A DNA stretch of 64,000 nucleotides from Mobula hypostoma (Eukaryota): contig NC_086108.1 of the NCBI RefSeq assembly GCF_963921235.1, forward strand, positions 65,350,001-65,414,000. Direction: 5' to 3'. The notes under the pieces were generated by a model. That model was given only the letters and a program-made list of their open reading frames with translations, was not told the DNA's origin and did no database searches. The position numbers were made by a program, and so were the translations under genes. Positions 2,166 to 58,600 of the stretch are shown one piece after another. How positions within the stretch are numbered: position 1 is the first letter of the stretch; each line of letters begins with the position of its first letter.

Positions 2166-2262
2166 TTCAAGGAAAGCAATGTTGGCATCTTAGAAAAATT
2201 GCTATAAGATGTCCTTTTAATTTGAATTGTCCTATTATAATTAATTTTAAAAAGACACGTAC

Positions 2263-2336
2263 CAAAGGTAGTATTATTTGTGCAGTTTTCTGGCTCTTGT
2301 GTTATATCACTTATCTTGGGAGCATCACAGATATAT
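2263..2336 (-). CDS. TM2D1: TM2D1 coding exon 2 (74 nt); gene continues past the window start
   Basis: Encodes (Q)YICDAPKISDITQEPENCTNNTTF, matching TM2D1 YICKDPKINDATQEPVNCTN. Acceptor TGTAG at 2341-2337, donor GTACGT from 2262. Confidence 0.92.
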
Positions 2337-3328
2337 CTACAGCAATAGTTAAGGAACTTTCTTGTTTTTACAAATTCTGTACAAACATACATGATTATAT
2401 ATCATGTTTTACTCATTAATATTTCAAATTGCTCACTATTATAACAAACCCATTGTTTAAAATATTTTCAAATGATTTAATAGTAAAGGAAAGGTACGTC
2501 GCATCCGGAATTTCTCTGGTCAGCGGAAGATTTCCCTCCACGCCTCTCTGATGTAGTGGGGAACCGCATAAGAGGCAAGTTACAGCAGTGGTTTGCCATT
2601 GCCTTCTGCCGGGTGAGTTTCCAAGAGATCATTAGCTTGTAATGCAGCACGGATGCAGGGGAGTCGGCTGGATTCGAACTTGAGACCTTTCGTTCCGAAG
2701 TCTGGCAATGACGCCACTACGCCACCAGCTGGGTCCGATTTAATAGTATTGTTTACAATTACATATTTATATATTAATTTAATTTGTATTATGCTCAGAA
2801 GAAACCTACACACTTCCATAACCCCAAAAAACCCTCAATTTAATACCGATCTTGGTGTACTAGTAAATTTCGGTACAACACATATTGCAATAAGCAAAAT
2901 TGGTATGTTAAAATTACGGTCGCCTTAACCTTACTGGCTGTCGTTAATAAGGGAAAGCATTAAAGCTCGGTATAAAAGTTATGCACCGCGTCAATGTATT
3001 TATTATACATACACACACTATTATCGTACAATGGAGATAAAGCATTCGGAATCTTTTAGTTCCTCTCGTTTATATATTAGTTTTTAGTGCGACCAGTTTA
3101 CTAGCCGATCACGGAAAAGAAACGCCTTCTAAGTGCCATATTTTATAAGAAAATCTTATTCATTAGCGTCACTCCGGCTCCTTAAGCAGAATCAGCCGAG
3201 AACAGAACCTGATCATGGAAAGAATAAACAACTTGTTCCTACTTGTGACTTCTAACAAAACCACCGAACCTGCTTATCCCGACAAACAATTTACCCACAA
3301 AAAACAATGACGATAATATAAAGGATAT
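2337..3328 (-). other. TM2D1: U12-type (minor spliceosome) intron with AT-AG termini
   Basis: 5' site ATATCCTTT (3328-3320), branch site TTCCTTAAC (2356-2348), terminal AG at 2338-2337. Splicing here restores G-Q-Y-I-C. Confidence 0.88.
2486..2736 (-). mobile_element. tRNA-headed SINE with RTE-type body
   Basis: A box TGGCGTAGTGG, B box GTTCGAATCC, RTE-like GAAGGCAATGGCAAACCAC. 12-bp TSD GATTTAATAGTA at 2474-2485 and 2737-2748. Confidence 0.85.
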
Positions 3329-3444
3329 TGCCCAAGTCGCAGTTCCTCGCATTTTTCGACATCAACAGAAAGAACATTTAACAAATAAGGACACAGGAAG
3401 GCAGTCGACAGCCACAGCGACCACCGCTCCCTGGGCAACGCCAT
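3329..3444 (-). CDS. TM2D1: TM2 domain-containing protein 1, coding exon 1
   Basis: ATG at 3444 in AAGATGGCG context. Encodes MALPRERWSLWLSTAFLCPYLLNVLSVDVEKCEELRLG(Q): a signal-peptide-like stretch followed by a match to TM2D1 KCEDLKVGQY. Ends in phase 2 before ATATCCTTT. An in-frame upstream ATG lies at 3453. Confidence 0.9.
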
Positions 3445-3760
3445 CTTGAACATAATCACATGACCACCAAGACGGAAGCGCGTTAGAGATTTACTCCCAG
3501 AACACACTTCGGTTCGGAAGGTTATCGAACTAAACTGCAGAATCGGTTGCTGTTTCTTAATGGTCCCTCCCAACCGAAAATTACTTAATTCTGAGTTGGC
3601 TGATGGTGCTAGTGAAAGACACTAGGTCAGTGGGGAGAGGTGTGCGCTCATAATTGCTGTTTTTTTTGGGTTTCTCAATGCCACCCCAAAGCTCTTCTCA
3701 TTTTGGGTTGTCAAGAGTTAGAGGATTCCGATCTGTCCGTGCGAATGTTACACGTTTTTT
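3445..3760 (-). promoter_or_regulatory. Putative TM2D1 promoter/5'UTR
   Basis: CpG-enriched segment directly upstream of the ATG with several CGGAAG/CTTCGG ETS-like motifs. TSS not determined. Confidence 0.5.
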
Positions 3761-5871: not shown

Positions 5872-8188
5872 GTTAGGACAAGTGACGGAAGTCTGTGTAG
5901 GGGAGCACTTTGGTTCCAGTGATCATAACACCATTAGTTTCAACTTGATTATGGATAAAGATAGATCTGGTCCTAGGGTTGAGGTTCTAAACTGGAAGAA
6001 GGCCAAATTTGAAGAAATGAGAAAGGATCTAAAATGCGTGGACTGGGACAGGTTGTTCTCTGGCAAGGACGTGATCGGTAAGTGGGAAGCCTTCAAAGGA
6101 GAAATTTTGAGAGTGCAGAGCTTGTATGTTCCTGTCAGGATTAAAGGCAAAGTGATTAGGAATAAGGAACCTTGGTTCTCGAGGGATATTGCAACTCTGA
6201 TAAAGAAGAAGAGAGTTGTATGACATGTATAGGAAACAGAGAGTAAATAAGGCGCTTGAGGAGTATAAAGAGTGCAAGAAAATATTTAAGAAGGAATTCA
6301 GGAGGGCTAAAAGAAGACATGAGGTTGCCTTGGCAGTCAAAGTGAAGGATAATCCAAAGAGCTTTTACATGTATATTAAGAGTAAAAGGATTGTCAGGGA
6401 TAAAATTGGTTCTCTTGAAGATCAGAGTGGTCAGCTATGTGCGGAACCAAAAGAAGTGGGGGAGATCTTAAATGGTTTTTTTGTGTCTGTATTTACTAAG
6501 GAAACTGGCATGAAGTCTATGGAATTAAGGGAAACAAGTAGTGAGATCATGGAAACTGTACAGATTGAAAAGGAGGAGGTGCTTGCTATCTTGAGGCAAA
6601 TTAAAGTGATTAAAGTGGATAAATCCCCAGGACCTGACAGGGTATTCCCTCGGACCTTGAAGGAGACTAGTGTTGAAATTGCAGGGGCCCTGGCAGATAT
6701 ACTTAAAATGTCGGTGTCTACAGGTGAGGTGCCGGAGGATTGGAGAATGGCTCATGTTGTTCTGTTGTTTAAAAAAGGATTGAAAAGTAATCCGGGAAAT
6801 TATAGGCTGGTAAATTTGTCGTCGGTAGTGGGTAAGTTATTGGAGGGTGTACTAAGAGACAGAATCTACAAGCATTTGGATAGACAGGGACTTTTTAGGG
6901 AGAGTCAACATGGCTTTGTGCACGGTAGGTCGTGTTTGACCAATCTATTGGAGTTTTTCGAGGAAGTTACCAGGAAAGTGGATGAAGGGAAGACAGTGGA
7001 TGTTGTCTACATGGACTTCAGTAAGGCCTTTGACAAGGTCCTGCATGGGAGGTTAGTTAGGAAAATTCAGTCGCTAAGTATATATGGAGAGGTGGTAAAT
7101 TGGATTAGAGATTGGCTCAATGGAAGAAGCCAAAGAGTGGTAGTAGAGAATTGCTTCTCAAAATGGAAGCCTGTGACTAGTGGTGTGCCACAGGAATCAG
7201 TGCTGGGTCCATTGTTATTTGTCATCTATATCAATAATCTGGATGATAATGTGGTAAATTGGATCAGCAAATTTGCTGATGATACAAAGATTGGAGGTGT
7301 AGTGGACAGTGAGGAAGGTTTTCAAAGCTTGCAGAGGGATTTGGACCAGCTGGAAAAATGGGCTGAAAAATGGCAGATGGAGTTTAATACAGACAAGTGT
7401 GAGGTATTGCACTTTGGAAGGACAAACCAAGGTAGAACATACAGGGTAAATGGTAAGGCACTGAGGAGGGCAGTGGAACAGAGGGATCTGGGAATACAGA
7501 TACAAAATTCCCTAAAAGTGGCGTCACAGGTAGATAGGGTCGTAAAGAGAGCTTTTGGTACATTGGCCTTTATTAATCAAAGTATTGAGTATAAGAGCTG
7601 GAATGTTATGATGAGGTTGTATAAGGCACTGGTGAGGCCGAATCTGGAGTATTGTGTTCAGTTTTGGTCACCAAATTACAAGAAGGATATTAATAGGGTT
7701 GAAAGAGTGCAGAGAAGGTTTACAAGGATGTTGCCGGGACTTGAGAAACTCAGTTACAGAGAAAGGTTGAATAAGTTAAGACTTTATTCCCTGGAGTGTA
7801 GAAGAATGAGGGGAGCTTTGATAGAGGTATATAAAATTATGATGGGTATAGATAGAGTGAATGCAAGCAGGCTTTTTCCACTAAGGCAAGGGGAGAAAAA
7901 AACCAGAGGACATGGGTTAAGGGTGAAGGGGGAAAAGTTTAAAGGGAACATTAGGGGAGGCTTCTTCACACAGAGAGTGGTGGAAATGTGGAATGAGCTG
8001 CCAAATGAGGTGGTAAATGCGGGTTCTTTTTTAACATTTAAGAATAAATTGGACAGATACATGGATGGGAGGTGTATGGAGGGATATGGTCCGTGTGCAG
8101 GTCAGTGGGACTAGGCAGAAAATGGTTCGGCACAGCCAAGGAGGGCCAAAAGGCCTGTTTCTGTGCTGTAGTTTTTCTATGGTTTCTA
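5872..8188 (+). mobile_element. Young 5'-truncated CR1-clade LINE with near-intact ORF2
   Basis: End of the AP endonuclease (GSSDHN), one frameshift near 6215, then a 632-aa ORF (6216-8114) with YMDFSKAFDKV and SKFADDTK. Short 3' UTR ends in TTCTATG-like repeats. Confidence 0.95.
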
Positions 8189-17024: not shown

Positions 17025-18048
17025 CCGGTGCCCCACAAGGCTGTGTACTCAGTCCCCTGCTGTACTCACTGTACACCCATGATTGTGTAGCCAAGTTTCC
17101 ATCAAACTCAATACATAAGCTTCTGATGACACAACAATTGTAGGCCGTATCTCAGGTAATGATGAGTTTGAAAACAGAGAGGAAATTAAGAACCTGGTGG
17201 CATGGTGTGAAGACAATAACCTATCCCTCAACGTCAGCAAGACGAAGGAATTGGTTGTTGTCTTCAGAGGAGTAGCGGACCTCACGACCCAATTTACATC
17301 GGTGGTGTGCAAGTGGAACAGGTCAAAAGCTTTAAGTTCCTTGGGGTCAATATCACAAATGACATGACTTGGTCCAACCAAGCAGAGTTCACTGCCAAGA
17401 AGGCCCACCAGCGCCTTTACTTCCTGAGAAAACTAAAGAAATTTGGCCTGTCCCCTAAAACCCTCACTAATTTTTATAGATGCACCGTAGAAAGCATTCT
17501 TCTAGGGTGCATCACAACCTGGTATGGAAGTTGTCCTGTCCAAGACCGAAAGAATCTGCAGAAGATCATGAACACGGCACAGCACATGACACAAACCAAT
17601 CTTCCGTCCTTGGACTCACTTTACACCGCACGCTGTCGGAGCAGTGCTGCCAGGATAATCAAGGACACGACCCACCCAGCCAACACACTTTTCGTCCCTC
17701 TTCCCTCCGGGAGAAGGCTCAGGAGCTTGAAGACTTCTATGGCCAGATTTGGGAACAGCTTCTTTCCAACTGTGATAAGAGTGCTGAATGGATCCTGACC
17801 CGGATCTGGGCCGTACCCTCCAAATATCCGGACCTGCCTCTCAGTTTTTTTGCATTACCTTACTTTCCATTTTTCTATTTTCTATTCATGATTTTTAATT
17901 TAAATTTTTAATATTTACTAATTTTTACTATTTTTAATATTTGATATTTGTAATCCAGGTAGCGGGAAGCGCAGAATCAAATATCGCTGTGATTATTGTA
18001 TGTTCTAGTATCAATTGTTTGGGGACAATAAAATATAAGTATAAAGTA
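17025..18048 (+). mobile_element. Young Rex1/Babar LINE 3' part
   Basis: GAPQGCVLSPLLYSLYT RT motif. Open ORF 17307-17798 (FKFLGVNIT..QRLYFLRKLKKFG..PLPSGRR..NSFFP). The tail is also present inverted at about 63497-63576. Confidence 0.9.
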
Positions 18049-26304: not shown

Positions 26305-27954
26305 TAGACAATAGACATATGTGCAGGAGTAGGCCATTCAGTCCTTCGAGCCAGCAGCACCATTCACTGTGATCATGGCTGATCATCCACAATCAGTACC
26401 CCGTTCCTGCTCCCCATATCCCTTCACTCCGCTATCTTTATCTAACTCTTTTTTGAAAGAATCCAGAGAATTGTCCTCCACTGCCTTCTGAGGCAGAGCA
26501 TTCCACAGAACCACAGCCCTCCGTGTGAAAAAGTTTTTCCTGAACTCCATTCTAAATTGTCTACCCCCTATTCTTAAACTGTGGCCTCTGGTTCTGGACT
26601 CTCCCAACATTGGGAACATGTTTCCTGCCTCTAGCATGTCAAATCCCTTAATAATCTTATGTTTCAATCAGATCCCCTCTCATCCTTCTCAACTCCAGTG
26701 TATACAACCCCAGTCGCTCCAATCTTTCAACATATGACAGTCCCGCCATCCCGGGAATTATCTCATGAACCTACGCTGCACTCCCTCAATAGCTAGAATG
26801 TCCTTCCTCAAATTTGGAGACCAGAACTGTACACAATACCCCAGGTGTGATCTCACCAGGGCCCTGTACAACTGCAGAAGGACCTCTTTGCTCCTAAACT
26901 CAACTCCCCTTGTTATGAAGGCCAACATGCCATTAGCTTTCTTCACTGCCTGCTGTACCTGTGTGCTTATTTTCAATGACTGATGAACAAGGACACCTAG
27001 ATCTCGTTGTACTTCCCCTTTTCCTAACGACTCCATTCAGATAGTAATCTGCCTCCCTGTTCTTGCCACTAAAGTGGATACCTCACATTTATCCACATTA
27101 AACTGCATCTGTCATGCATCTGCCCACTCGCTCAACCTGTCCAAGTCACCCAGCATTCTCATAACATCCTCCTCACATTTCACACTGCCACCCAGCTTTG
27201 TGTCATCTGCAAATTTCCTAATGTTACTTTTAATCCTTTCATCTAAATCATTCATGTATATTGTAAATAGCTGCGGTGCCAGCACCGACCCTTGTGGTAT
27301 CCCACTAGTCACTGCCTGCCATTCTGTAAAGGACCCATTAATCCCTACTGTTTGTTTCCTGTCTGCCAACCAATTTCCTATCCATGTCAGTATCCTACCC
27401 CCCTACCATTTGCTCTAATTTTGCACACTAACCTCCTACGTGGGACCTTATCAAAGGCTTTCTGAAAGTCCGGGTACACTACATCCACTGGCTTTCCCAT
27501 GTCCATTTTCATAGTTACATTCTCAAAAAATTCCAGAAGATTAATCAAGCATGATTTCCCCTTCGTAAATCCATGCTGACTCGGACCTATCCTGCCACTG
27601 CTATCCAAATATGCCGCTATTTCATCTTTTATAATTGATTCCAGCATCTTCCCCACCACTGATGTCAGACTAACTGGTCTATAATTGCCTGTTTTCTCTC
27701 TCCCTCCTTTCTTAAAAAGTGGGATAACATAAGCTACCCTCCAATCCGCAGGAACTGATCGTGAATCTATTGAACATTGGAAAATGATTACCAATGCATC
27801 CATGATTTCTAGAGCCACCTTCTTAAGTACCCTGGGATGTAGACCATCAGGCCCTGGGGATTTATGAACCTTCAGTCCCATCAGTTTACCTAACACCATT
27901 TTCTGCCTGATGCAAATTTCATTCAGTTCCTCTGTTACCCTCGGTCCTCTGGCC
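26305..27954 (-). mobile_element. 5'-truncated CR1 LINE
   Basis: RT ORF pieces (KSPGPDGLHPRVLK, NYRPVSLTS, DFQKAFDKVP, KFADDTK). TSD CATGTGTCAA at 26295-26304 and 27955-27964. Confidence 0.93.
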
Positions 27955-28931
27955 CATGTGTCAAACACATTCTGGTGCCATCCTAGCATGTCTGCAATGC
28001 TCCGGGGAACAGTACATAACTCAATAAGCATCAAACAACAACAGCAAAAACAAGCTTCATTCCTTCCTCCCACCCACACATATACACAGTCTAACCCCAT
28101 GATAGACCTCCAGTTCCATCCCCCACCAGACATGATTCAGGCCTGCTAACATAATGCATTTCATTGTATGTGTCAATGTACATATGACAAATAAATTAAT
28201 CTGAATCCTGCATCACCTGTAGGGGCTGTTTAGGTCCCTGCATGGGGGTGAGGAAGGAGTTGTAGGACAGGTGTGTACCTGCTCTGGTCACCCAGTTCCT
28301 CCTGCACATATCCACTAACACCCTCATTAGTACTGGCTGTCTCTGTTCTCTTTCAGCCCAGCGGAAGGGTCTTGACCCAAAACATCGACTTTCCTATTCC
28401 CTTTACAGATACTGCCTGCCCCATTGTGTTCCCCCAGCAGATTAATTTTTAATGCTCAAGGATTCATTGTTTCTCCAACTCCAGGCTTTGACATGATCAA
28501 GTGAACATGACATTTTCTTCACCACATTATTAATGTGGTGCCTTTAACCTTCCATTCCTAAACCTAATGTTGTCTTCTTTTACTTGGTGTAATTCTTTTG
28601 GCTTCTCAGTTGGCTTCCATGAAATGCCTTTGTGCAGGTTACAATGTTATTTGTGTTTTATAAATGCTGTTTTATGTTTTATCAGATACTTCGTGAGAAT
28701 TGCATTTAAAGTGATTAAATATGCTCAATAATATTACTGAATTTGAATATGAGTTAAATGTTTGAAAACTTTTGGTTCATTGTCATCCTCCAACTTATGA
28801 ACAAGGCTTGTCCTTGTTAATAGCTTTACATTATATTTTTTATTAAAAATGTCCTGCAAAACATTAGATAGTTGAAAATTACAACCTTTTTTTGGCCAAA
28901 ACTCATATCATTTTGTTTGTTTTGTTCATAG

Positions 28932-29127
28932 GGATGGCAGATTACAAGAACAAGATCAGATATTGGCCTTGAATCATACACCATTGGATGAGACTGTTTC
29001 TCACCAAGAAGCCATTGCAATGCTCCAGCAGACCAAAGGATCAGTGCATTTGGTGGTTGCCAGAGGATCTCCTCACAGGACCCCCTCCCCAACAGATATG
29101 GCAACGTTACCTTTCTCTTCACAATCA
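28932..29127 (+). CDS. PATJ: PATJ exon, PDZ1 C-half
   Basis: [45 protein letters not shown]...SSQS. Donor gtaagt. Confidence 0.95.
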
Positions 29128-29257
29128 GTAAGTTCTGATTGGTTTTACAGAAGTCAGAGTAAAAGTAAAACTTAAGTCTTAATTTTGGTGTTAACATGCT
29201 CTCTTATAAAGAAGCTGAAAAATTTAGGAATTTCTTTTGCCTTCTGAAATTTATCTA

Positions 29258-55655: not shown

Positions 55656-58600
55656 AATAGAGATAGCTAGCCTTTAAAGCATTTTAGACATAAGTTGTAC
55701 AAATTGCTCATCATTTCTTTTGTGTTTTATCATTAACAACCATTCTGTTGAATCTAATTTGCACTTGCATTTCACTTAGTTCATTATTAATACAGAATTT
55801 GGATTCTTTGACCGCTTTTGTTTAATTTTACAGTTCAGTTATACAAAAATACATCAAATAGAAGATTGTGTGGTTTGACGAAGCATTTTTAAAAACAGTT
55901 TTCCAGCATGTTTTTTGTCCTTAAGGAAAGGCTGGGTTTTGTCAGGTGACTCACAGGATCTGTTGGTGGTTGATGCCATAAAGTCAAGAATTTACTTGGT
56001 TCTAAATTTAGGAGATGATATTATTTTATATTTTAATTATTTGAAGGCAATAGCTTTAGTTCTATATCCTCATGCAAGGGGTATTCAATTGAATGATGTA
56101 TTTATTAAACAAATGAAATCATTGGTCAATATGGTAAAAATGATTATTTGTTTTATTCATTTTTGATAATGGCTGAGACTGGGAAGAACAACAGTTCCTA
56201 CGGTTCCTATGTTCGTACTCACCAGTAATGACGGATTTGCTATCTATTTTAACGTTGAGGTAGTATGTGACGAATGGAGTAGGCAGATGGTGGTTTTGCC
56301 ATGCACGTGAATCCTTTGTCGTCTTTAATATGATAGAAGTTGCAGATTAGAATGTTTTATAGGAGGAGCCAAAGTGAACAAGTAGACATTTTGTAGATCA
56401 AGGATGGCCAATCCGTGGTGCACGTGGCAAAAGTGGCCCATTGGATGATTAGAAGTGGCGCATTGCACCCCAATGATAATAATAAAAAAGTAAGCCTACT
56501 CATGTAAAAAGTGTTAACCAAAAACCGATTTGTAGAAAAAAAATCTTTAACAGGAATTCAAGTAACTTCGAGCTAGAAATGGGTTTTACTGAGAATAAAT
56601 CTAAAACTTAGCAATTATTTTTAGCAATTTTATTATTTCATGCACATCTTTTGGTGAATGTTATCTTCTTCCACATTAATCTGTTTTTAATTCAGAGAAA
56701 ATGTTCAGTGAGTCAAACTAGGAAAGAAGGACTTTTGTTCTGCACTTGTTCCATAACTGTTCCATACAGGTTTGATACTTAATCGATCCTGAGGCGCCAG
56801 GCGTCTGCACCAGCGGTGTGTCGCAGGTTTTTGCCAGTCAGTTTACAATTGGCACTCGTGCGCTACGGAGTTGTGCTGTGTTTGTCCTTTGTGAACATTT
56901 GCAGTTTTGCACTTTTTTGAAAATTAAGCCTTGCTTTTACATTCAGTTACCCATCACAGTGCAAAAGAAAATGAGCAAAAGAAAAGCAAAAATTGATGGT
57001 AAGCGTGAATTCAATGAACAGTGGGAAAATGAGTTCTTATTTATAGCAGGTCCATCAGGAAAACCATTGTGCATTGTTTGTGAAAACACTTTCTCACATA
57101 GTACAAGACATGATCTTAATAGACACTGTAGAACACAATATCAGACTGAAATAGAAGGAAAACTGAAGCTGGTGCTTGGGTCTGAGTTACGGAAAGAATA
57201 TGTCATTAAGAAAAAGGAAGAAATCAAAAGAAGACAAAATATATTTGTTAAAAGAATTTGTGAAAGATTGGTGATGACAGAAGCGTCCTATGAAATTGCT
57301 TTAGTGGTGACCAAAAAACGGAAGTCTTTCTCTGATGGAGAAGAAATTGTTAAGCCTTGTCTCCAAATATTTGCAAGATGTCTTGGTGATAAAAATATCG
57401 AAAGGAAAGTAGGCGAAATTGCTCTGTCAAAGCAAACAGTTAGGAGACGCGAAGAACTCTATCAAACAGTTAGGAGACGCACCAAAGACGCACCGATGAA
57501 AGACCTTGTCCATGTTTGTACTTTCTTTTCTTTAGCTTTGGACGAATCTGCTGACATATGTGATGTAACCCAGTTAAGCATTTTTATAAGAGGAATTGAT
57601 GATAATTTTAGCGTCTTTGAAGAACTTATCGGTCTTGAGTCGCTTCATGGAAAAACAAGAGGATCAGACATATTTGCAAAGTAAAATCAGGCCTAGAAAA
57701 TCTACAACTAGATTCTAGTAAACTGATCGGTGTTTGTACTGAAGGAGTGCCGTCAATGATAGGTAAAGCCGCTGGGACTACAACTTCGCTTGAAAACTTT
57801 TTAGGTCGTCCTCTACTAAAATATCACTGCATTATACACCAAGAGTCACTGTGTGGAAAAACTTTACATTTGCAGCATGTTATGTTACTGGTTGTGAAAT
57901 GTGTGAATAAAATTAGAGGAAGAGGATTTAAACAGGTGAGAATTCAGAGAATATTGTGAAATATTAGATCTGGAATATGGCGATCTTGTCCTTCATTGTG
58001 AGGTGAGCTGGCTTTCTAGAGGACAGGCTCTGAGTAGATTTTGGAAACTGAAAAATGTTGTTCATAATTTTCTAGAAGAGAAAAATGAGCTGCCTGAGGA
58101 AAGAACCCTTTTATGTGATAACAATTGGCTATTTGATTTAGTATTTTTAGTTGATGTTTCCAGCCATCTCAATGATCTAAATTTGAAACTCCAGGGCAAG
58201 AACCAATTGTTTCCTAGCTTAGTAAATGATATCAATGCATTCAAGATGAAGTTAAAACTGTTCACCTCTCAGTTAGAGAATGAGGATTTGAGCCAGTTTC
58301 TGCACTTAAAAGAGCAGAGTGAATGTGCTGGAGATAATGACAATTTTACAAAATATATTGAAAAAAATCAGGTTATTGCAAGAGTCATTTGAAAGTCGTT
58401 TCGTGATTTTGCTTAAGAAGAAGACTGCATTCTTGCGCTTATAAACCCATTTTCACTTAGTGGACAAAAAATCATGAAGATGGAACTTATTGATGAAAAC
58501 AAATTCATTATTGAACATGAAGTTTGATGAGCTTCCCTCAGTCCCAAATGCTTCTGACATGATTAATTTCTGACAATCATTACCCTGTGAACATTTTCCA

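Follow-up and report, generated by a model that had tools for sequence, protein, structure and literature searches.

The analysed stretch of 64 kb (hereafter the window) is free of any N and carries the 5' part of the TM2D1 gene on its minus strand. The exon 1 translation, 42 aa long, is 100% identical to the start of P0003, the TM2 domain-containing protein 1 of Mobula hypostoma, and shows 87% and 72% identity to two other batoid TM2D1 proteins. The exon 2 translation corresponds to P0003 residues 43-66, so that both exons translate identically to this RefSeq protein. Exon 1 encodes a hydrophobic leader, after which the cysteine-rich ectodomain begins. The assignment follows from identity to named TM2D1 proteins with Pfam PF05154, the TM2 domain itself being encoded outside the window. 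Judged by these translations, the exons are those of ray TM2D1, as the original prediction had stated. The features discussed below, all on the minus strand, are as follows.

3329..3453, minus strand: TM2D1 exon 1, coding part, with an ATG at 3453 and a second in-frame ATG at 3444
2337..3328, minus strand: intron 1, 992 nt, phase 2, AT-AG termini (992-nt joint in runs X1, X2 and X11; placed by splice consensus)
3320..3328, minus strand: U12-type 5' splice site, A-type, ATATCCTTT (from the sequence; sole [AG]TATCCTTT in the window)
2486..2736, minus strand: SINE-like repeat (~250 bp) within intron 1, with the copies of a perfect 12-bp direct repeat on either side (2474-2485 and 2737-2748)
2348..2356, minus strand: U12-type branch site TTCCTTAAC (from the sequence; same 9-mer in the human ortholog)
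2337..2338, minus strand: 3' splice site AG, 11 nt past the branch motif (from the sequence)
2263..2336, minus strand: TM2D1 exon 2, 74 nt (translation matches P0003; GT donor next)
2257..2262, minus strand: intron 2 donor GTACGT, of major-class appearance (from the sequence)

The surroundings of the gene offer several further observations. On the plus strand, a PDZ-domain coding exon lies at 28876-29175, with InaD-like protein (PATJ) as its best solved-structure match (E = 3e-17). This PATJ-like gene is on the opposite strand and runs away from TM2D1; in human, the order of TM2D1 and PATJ is presumably head-to-head. The SINE-like repeat within intron 1 forms no part of the splice signals. Its head appears by eye to contain what we take to be A-box- and B-box-like motifs, and ARAGORN finds no tRNA in the window, the SINE head included. 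Four other stretches, 6204-8114 (+), 26383-28136 (-), 17220-17798 (+) and 56776-58392 (+), were recognised by eye from their translations as mobile-element remnants. We read them as LINE remnants of reverse-transcriptase-like coding, one of which keeps an open frame of 636 residues, together with a disrupted stretch that resembles a DNA transposase.

Read along the minus strand, exon 1 ends with ...GGGCA at 3329 and intron 1 opens with ATATCCTTTA at 3328. The donor ATATCCTTT (3328-3320) matches the extended U12 5' splice site RTATCCTT, and the branch site TTCCTTAAC (2356-2348) matches the U12 consensus TTCCTTRAC, which would make position 2349 the branch adenosine. The terminal AG is the sole AG or AC that ends 1-32 nt past the branch motif, and the distance of 11 nt from this motif to exon 2 falls within the optimum of 11-13 nt (PMC3584512). 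A polypyrimidine tract is absent, as only 6/9 bases between the branch motif and the AG are pyrimidines, in an interrupted run, and the sequence upstream of the branch motif is A-rich. The consensus donor, the perfect branch site 11 nt before exon 2 and the missing polypyrimidine tract had all been predicted, and each can be read directly from the DNA. With AT as its first and AG as its last bases in the assembly, the intron belongs to the AT-AG subtype, and by every sequence feature tested it is a U12 A-type intron.

The position of the borders requires some care, because the intron can be placed in five equivalent ways. Shifts of +1 to +4 leave the mRNA unchanged and give the termini TA..GA, AT..AT, TC..TA and CC..AT, none of them in register with the donor consensus, while a shift to the left is impossible. 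The +2 placement (AT..AT) was considered and rejected, its donor being out of register with the consensus. The AT-AG placement was chosen since the splice signals are present at this placement only. The expectation that placements shifted along the ATAT repeat lack splice consensus is hence borne out. Across the junction the reading frame stays open through GQYIC, in phase 2, as had been anticipated, and the 7/7 proteins of the ray cluster agree.

Both the donor and the branch motif occur once on the two strands of the 64 kb. From base composition, 1.17 and 0.76 occurrences are expected, i.e., about one of each, so that the mere presence of either motif is unremarkable. Their placement is another matter. 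With the ATAT that exon 2 shares taken as given, the donor tail would stand in its position by chance with a probability of ~1e-3, and a branch motif would fall within 10 offsets of the acceptor with one of ~6e-5.

As regards secondary structure, a 10-bp helix is predicted between 3430-3439 and 3327-3336 on the minus strand, in which the coding start pairs across the border of exon 1 and intron 1, taking in the last bases of the exon and the first two of the intron. This helix leaves donor positions +3 to +10 unpaired, and its length is at background level.

Sequencing runs allow for a comparison of the predicted junction with assembled contigs. Thirteen runs share a small part of the stretch, none of them recorded as RNA, and 4/13 were examined as contigs; their RNA status is the tool's guess. 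In contigs of 3/4 runs (X1, X2 and X11), an exact 992-nt joint connects 3329 to 2336, in agreement with the predicted junction, with 4 bases that fit either side. These runs represent three coded organisms from three studies and provide one joining contig each, at depths of 125, 92 and 35. The contigs cover exon 1 at 3325-3450/3466 and run on past 2263 into sequence without a match in the window, i.e., exon 3; a search for exon 3 within the window likewise gave 0 matches. Run X8 contributes only a 152-nt exon 1 contig, which ends at 3325 without the joint. At the 5' end of the intron, contigs of the four runs reach no further than the 4 ambiguous bases. The joint thus fixes the junction to the five equivalent placements, the AT-AG one among them. 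It says nothing on the intron ends of the runs themselves, because these ends are uncovered and at least X1 and X11 carry exon letters that depart from those of the window. Contigs cannot measure retention, and uncovered intron ends are no evidence on it. Separately, many diverged contigs from all four runs pile up on the SINE-like repeat, at 2485-2736.

The same contigs bear on the possibility that the major spliceosome removes the intron, either from a GT donor close by or by treating it as an AT-AG intron of U2 type. The intron does end in YAG, and three in-frame, stop-free GT donors are available at -54, +30 and +45. In human, failure of minor splicing brings alternative donors into use, as given in the column 'AD' of the supplements of PMC8280824. 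However, the only joint listed in the four runs skips 992 nt, a length that would not result from any GT donor, which contradicts the use of such a donor as the main form. No main junction with a different GT donor, the outcome that had been named as speaking against the prediction, is found among the joints listed, and no other joints are listed in the four runs examined. Between conserved cysteines, use of the GT donors would furthermore cost the protein 18 residues or add 10-15 to it. The lack of a polypyrimidine tract, along with a donor and a branch site of U12 consensus, also argues against a U2-type intron. Removal by the major spliceosome is accordingly extremely improbable.

Protein models of other vertebrates provide an additional view on this junction. 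We examined 126 vertebrate proteins, comprising the best 120 of 635 hits and 6 cluster members, and 121/126 read GQ-[YF]-x-C across the junction. One of the 126 has a different first exon. Another 4/126, all outside cartilaginous fishes, read GQYP, i.e., they continue into the donor. These models (P0114, P0116, P0118 and P0122, from snake, frog, bird and goby) read into an RTATCC donor, and represent an apparent mis-annotation at the TM2D1 U12 intron. They may also point indirectly to conservation of the donor in those lineages, although they cannot tell AT from GT donors, as both give Gln. The original prediction had warned that gene predictors mis-model such introns. As 7/7 ray-cluster proteins show the correct GQYIC junction, the RefSeq models of rays being right at this point, this worry does not apply to the ray lineage. 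For annotation, the TM2D1 junction is a spot where some vertebrate models enter the donor (4/126 of those examined), and the ray models are right. Two isoforms deviate in other ways: the shark isoform P0022 is without exon 1 and joins other sequence at ICET, and the stingray isoform P0011 misses five residues at the exon 2-3 border.

The human ortholog offers the closest comparison. Human TM2D1 intron 1 (chr1:61723787-61724956, minus strand, 1170 nt) appears as a U12 AT_AC intron in the 'U12 A-type' sheet among the supplements of PMC8280824, so that the orthologous intron is U12-type in another species. In the same source, 48 h of CENATAC depletion raise its retention from 0.21 to 0.85, and ZRSR2-mutant samples show a retention of 0.64 against 0.14. 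The human ortholog of the ray intron depends on CENATAC and ZRSR2 and responds strongly to minor-spliceosome defects. The two introns share the gene, the codon position and exon border, the first seven donor bases (ATATCCT), an identical TTCCTTAAC and the ATATAT start of exon 2, and they are of similar length, 1170 nt in human and 992 nt in the ray. They differ at donor position +8, which is consensus in the ray and off consensus in human, and in the distance from the branch motif to the intron end, 12 nt in human vs 11 nt in the ray. Since the human intron ends in AC, the ray differs by its last intron base, G instead of C. The comparison of ortholog termini that had been proposed, made here with human only, thus upholds the shared U12 class and reveals a different last base. 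A degenerate pattern of branch site plus exon 2, matched against metagenome contigs, gave at least 117 matches, and 0 of the 117 listed continue as TM2D1 exon 2.

The AC end in human raises the question of whether the ray carries an ordinary AT-AC U12 intron, with a terminal G that was miscalled in the assembly or is a variant of one individual. The contigs of the four runs leave the last intron bases uncovered, and the terminal G therefore rests on the assembly alone. On the other hand, the window is without N and both exons are identical in translation to the RefSeq protein. The plausible per-base error of a chromosome-scale assembly is far below ~7%. Natural AG ends are far more frequent than this error: AT_AG makes up 14 of about 205 human A-type rows, about 7%, in the supplements of PMC8280824, a part of these rows possibly being alternative acceptors. 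That the terminal G is a miscall or a private allele is for these reasons very unlikely. The same proportion qualifies the earlier description of AT-AG as very rare; judged by these supplements, the subtype is indeed uncommon, but it is not exotic.

A further reading accepts the AT-AG termini in DNA and assumes A-to-I editing of the donor A, upon which the minor spliceosome would read the intron as GT-AG. Such editing has been published for two U12-like AT-AG introns, in human NUP210 and CRYZL1 (PMC4176328, Table 2), and the same paper also notes AT-AG sites without editing. In the ray, folding predicts a paired donor A (probability 0.95), which closes the 10-bp helix with the exon 1 start. 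However, over the 344 A positions of the pre-mRNA the helix length ranges from 7 to 17 bp with a median of 10 bp, and shuffled sequences fold at least as well as the region (z = +1.04). Neither a long inverted repeat nor a long double-stranded structure over the donor, as in the editing class, was found in exon 1, intron 1 and exon 2. Moreover, the human ortholog retains A at +1 with an AC end. Taken together, editing of the donor has only a slight probability.

We consider it very probable that the ray intron is the conserved vertebrate TM2D1 minor (U12-type) intron 1 of A-type (AT-AN), with G as its last base vs C in human. The predicted U12 intron with AT-AG ends at 2337..3328 finds its confirmation in the agreement of splice signals and assembly termini and in the catalogued U12 status of the human ortholog. 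From the established pathway, the U11/U12 di-snRNP would bind the ATATCCTTT donor and the TTCCTTAAC branch site together, after which U6atac would take the place of U11. CENATAC would be needed, as with other A-type introns. The 3' end would be set by the distance from the branch site, with G tolerated as the last base. The G itself might represent a nearly neutral single C-to-G change from an AT-AC ancestor. We propose that it has been kept because the donor and branch site are full consensus and any other AG or AC is out of reach. The direction of the change is a guess from subtype frequencies, as termini were compared in two species only, ray and human.

By itself, the finding is small, adding one more case of A-type minor introns that tolerate a varied last base. 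A broader scenario, which we regard as rather unlikely, is that AT-AG is fixed throughout an old clade of rays or of cartilaginous fishes, other vertebrates having AT-AC and perhaps also GT-AG. In that case, the subtype switch from AT-AC to GT-AG would have a natural and long-lived intermediate in TM2D1 intron 1, a usable example of an intermediate that is supposedly disfavoured. The intron would also offer a ready series for finding out which terminal base sets CENATAC dependence and retention.

Introns with AT-AG termini form a known subtype. In PMC8280824, A-type introns are defined as AT-AC, AT-AA, AT-AG or AT-AT, and 92% of them are affected by CENATAC depletion. Sheth 2006 (PMC1557818) counts 11 AT-AG U12 introns in human and 8 in mouse and puts AT-AG forward as a viable intermediate step in subtype switching, whereas PMC3584512, the source of the optimal branch-to-3' distance of 11-13 nt, calls it disfavoured and possibly poorly spliced. 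Among conserved animal minor introns, non-canonical termini amount to ~3.8%, most being one base off a canonical pair (PMC10639083). The original prediction had allowed that the intron may already be known in orthologs. This is true for the U12 status of the human intron, which however ends AT-AC, and a published record of AT-AG in TM2D1 was not found in a search that left MIDB, IAOD and several supplements outside its scope. TM2D1 was not found in the supplements of PMC11347168 and PMC2831892, nor in the searched supplement files of PMC6239176 and PMC4176328 (one file apiece lying outside the search). Main-text literature on TM2D1 with U12, minor intron or AT-AC gave nothing relevant, and literature on sharks and the minor spliceosome nothing relevant by title.

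The ray TM2D1 AT-AG intron is a real, ordinary case of known one-letter variation. Human U12 AT-AG introns, described in NUP210, XPO4, CUL4B, USP21, INPP5B, RAPGEFL1, TBC1D32, CCDC43, ACTR10 and others, have the same termini, donor and branch consensus and A-type (AT-AN) class. They differ in their host genes, TM2D1 being absent from the AT-AG cases listed in PMC1557818 and PMC8280824. For XPO4 and ACTR10, the mouse counterpart of the AT-AG intron is GT-AG; for ray TM2D1, the human counterpart is AT-AC. Cacna1h and 4930449E07Rik provide another parallel, the human intron being AT-AC and its mouse ortholog AT-AG in either gene (PMC1557818, Table 3). The orthologous U12 introns of these pairs likewise differ in just this one 3' base, there between human and mouse, and for TM2D1 between human and ray.
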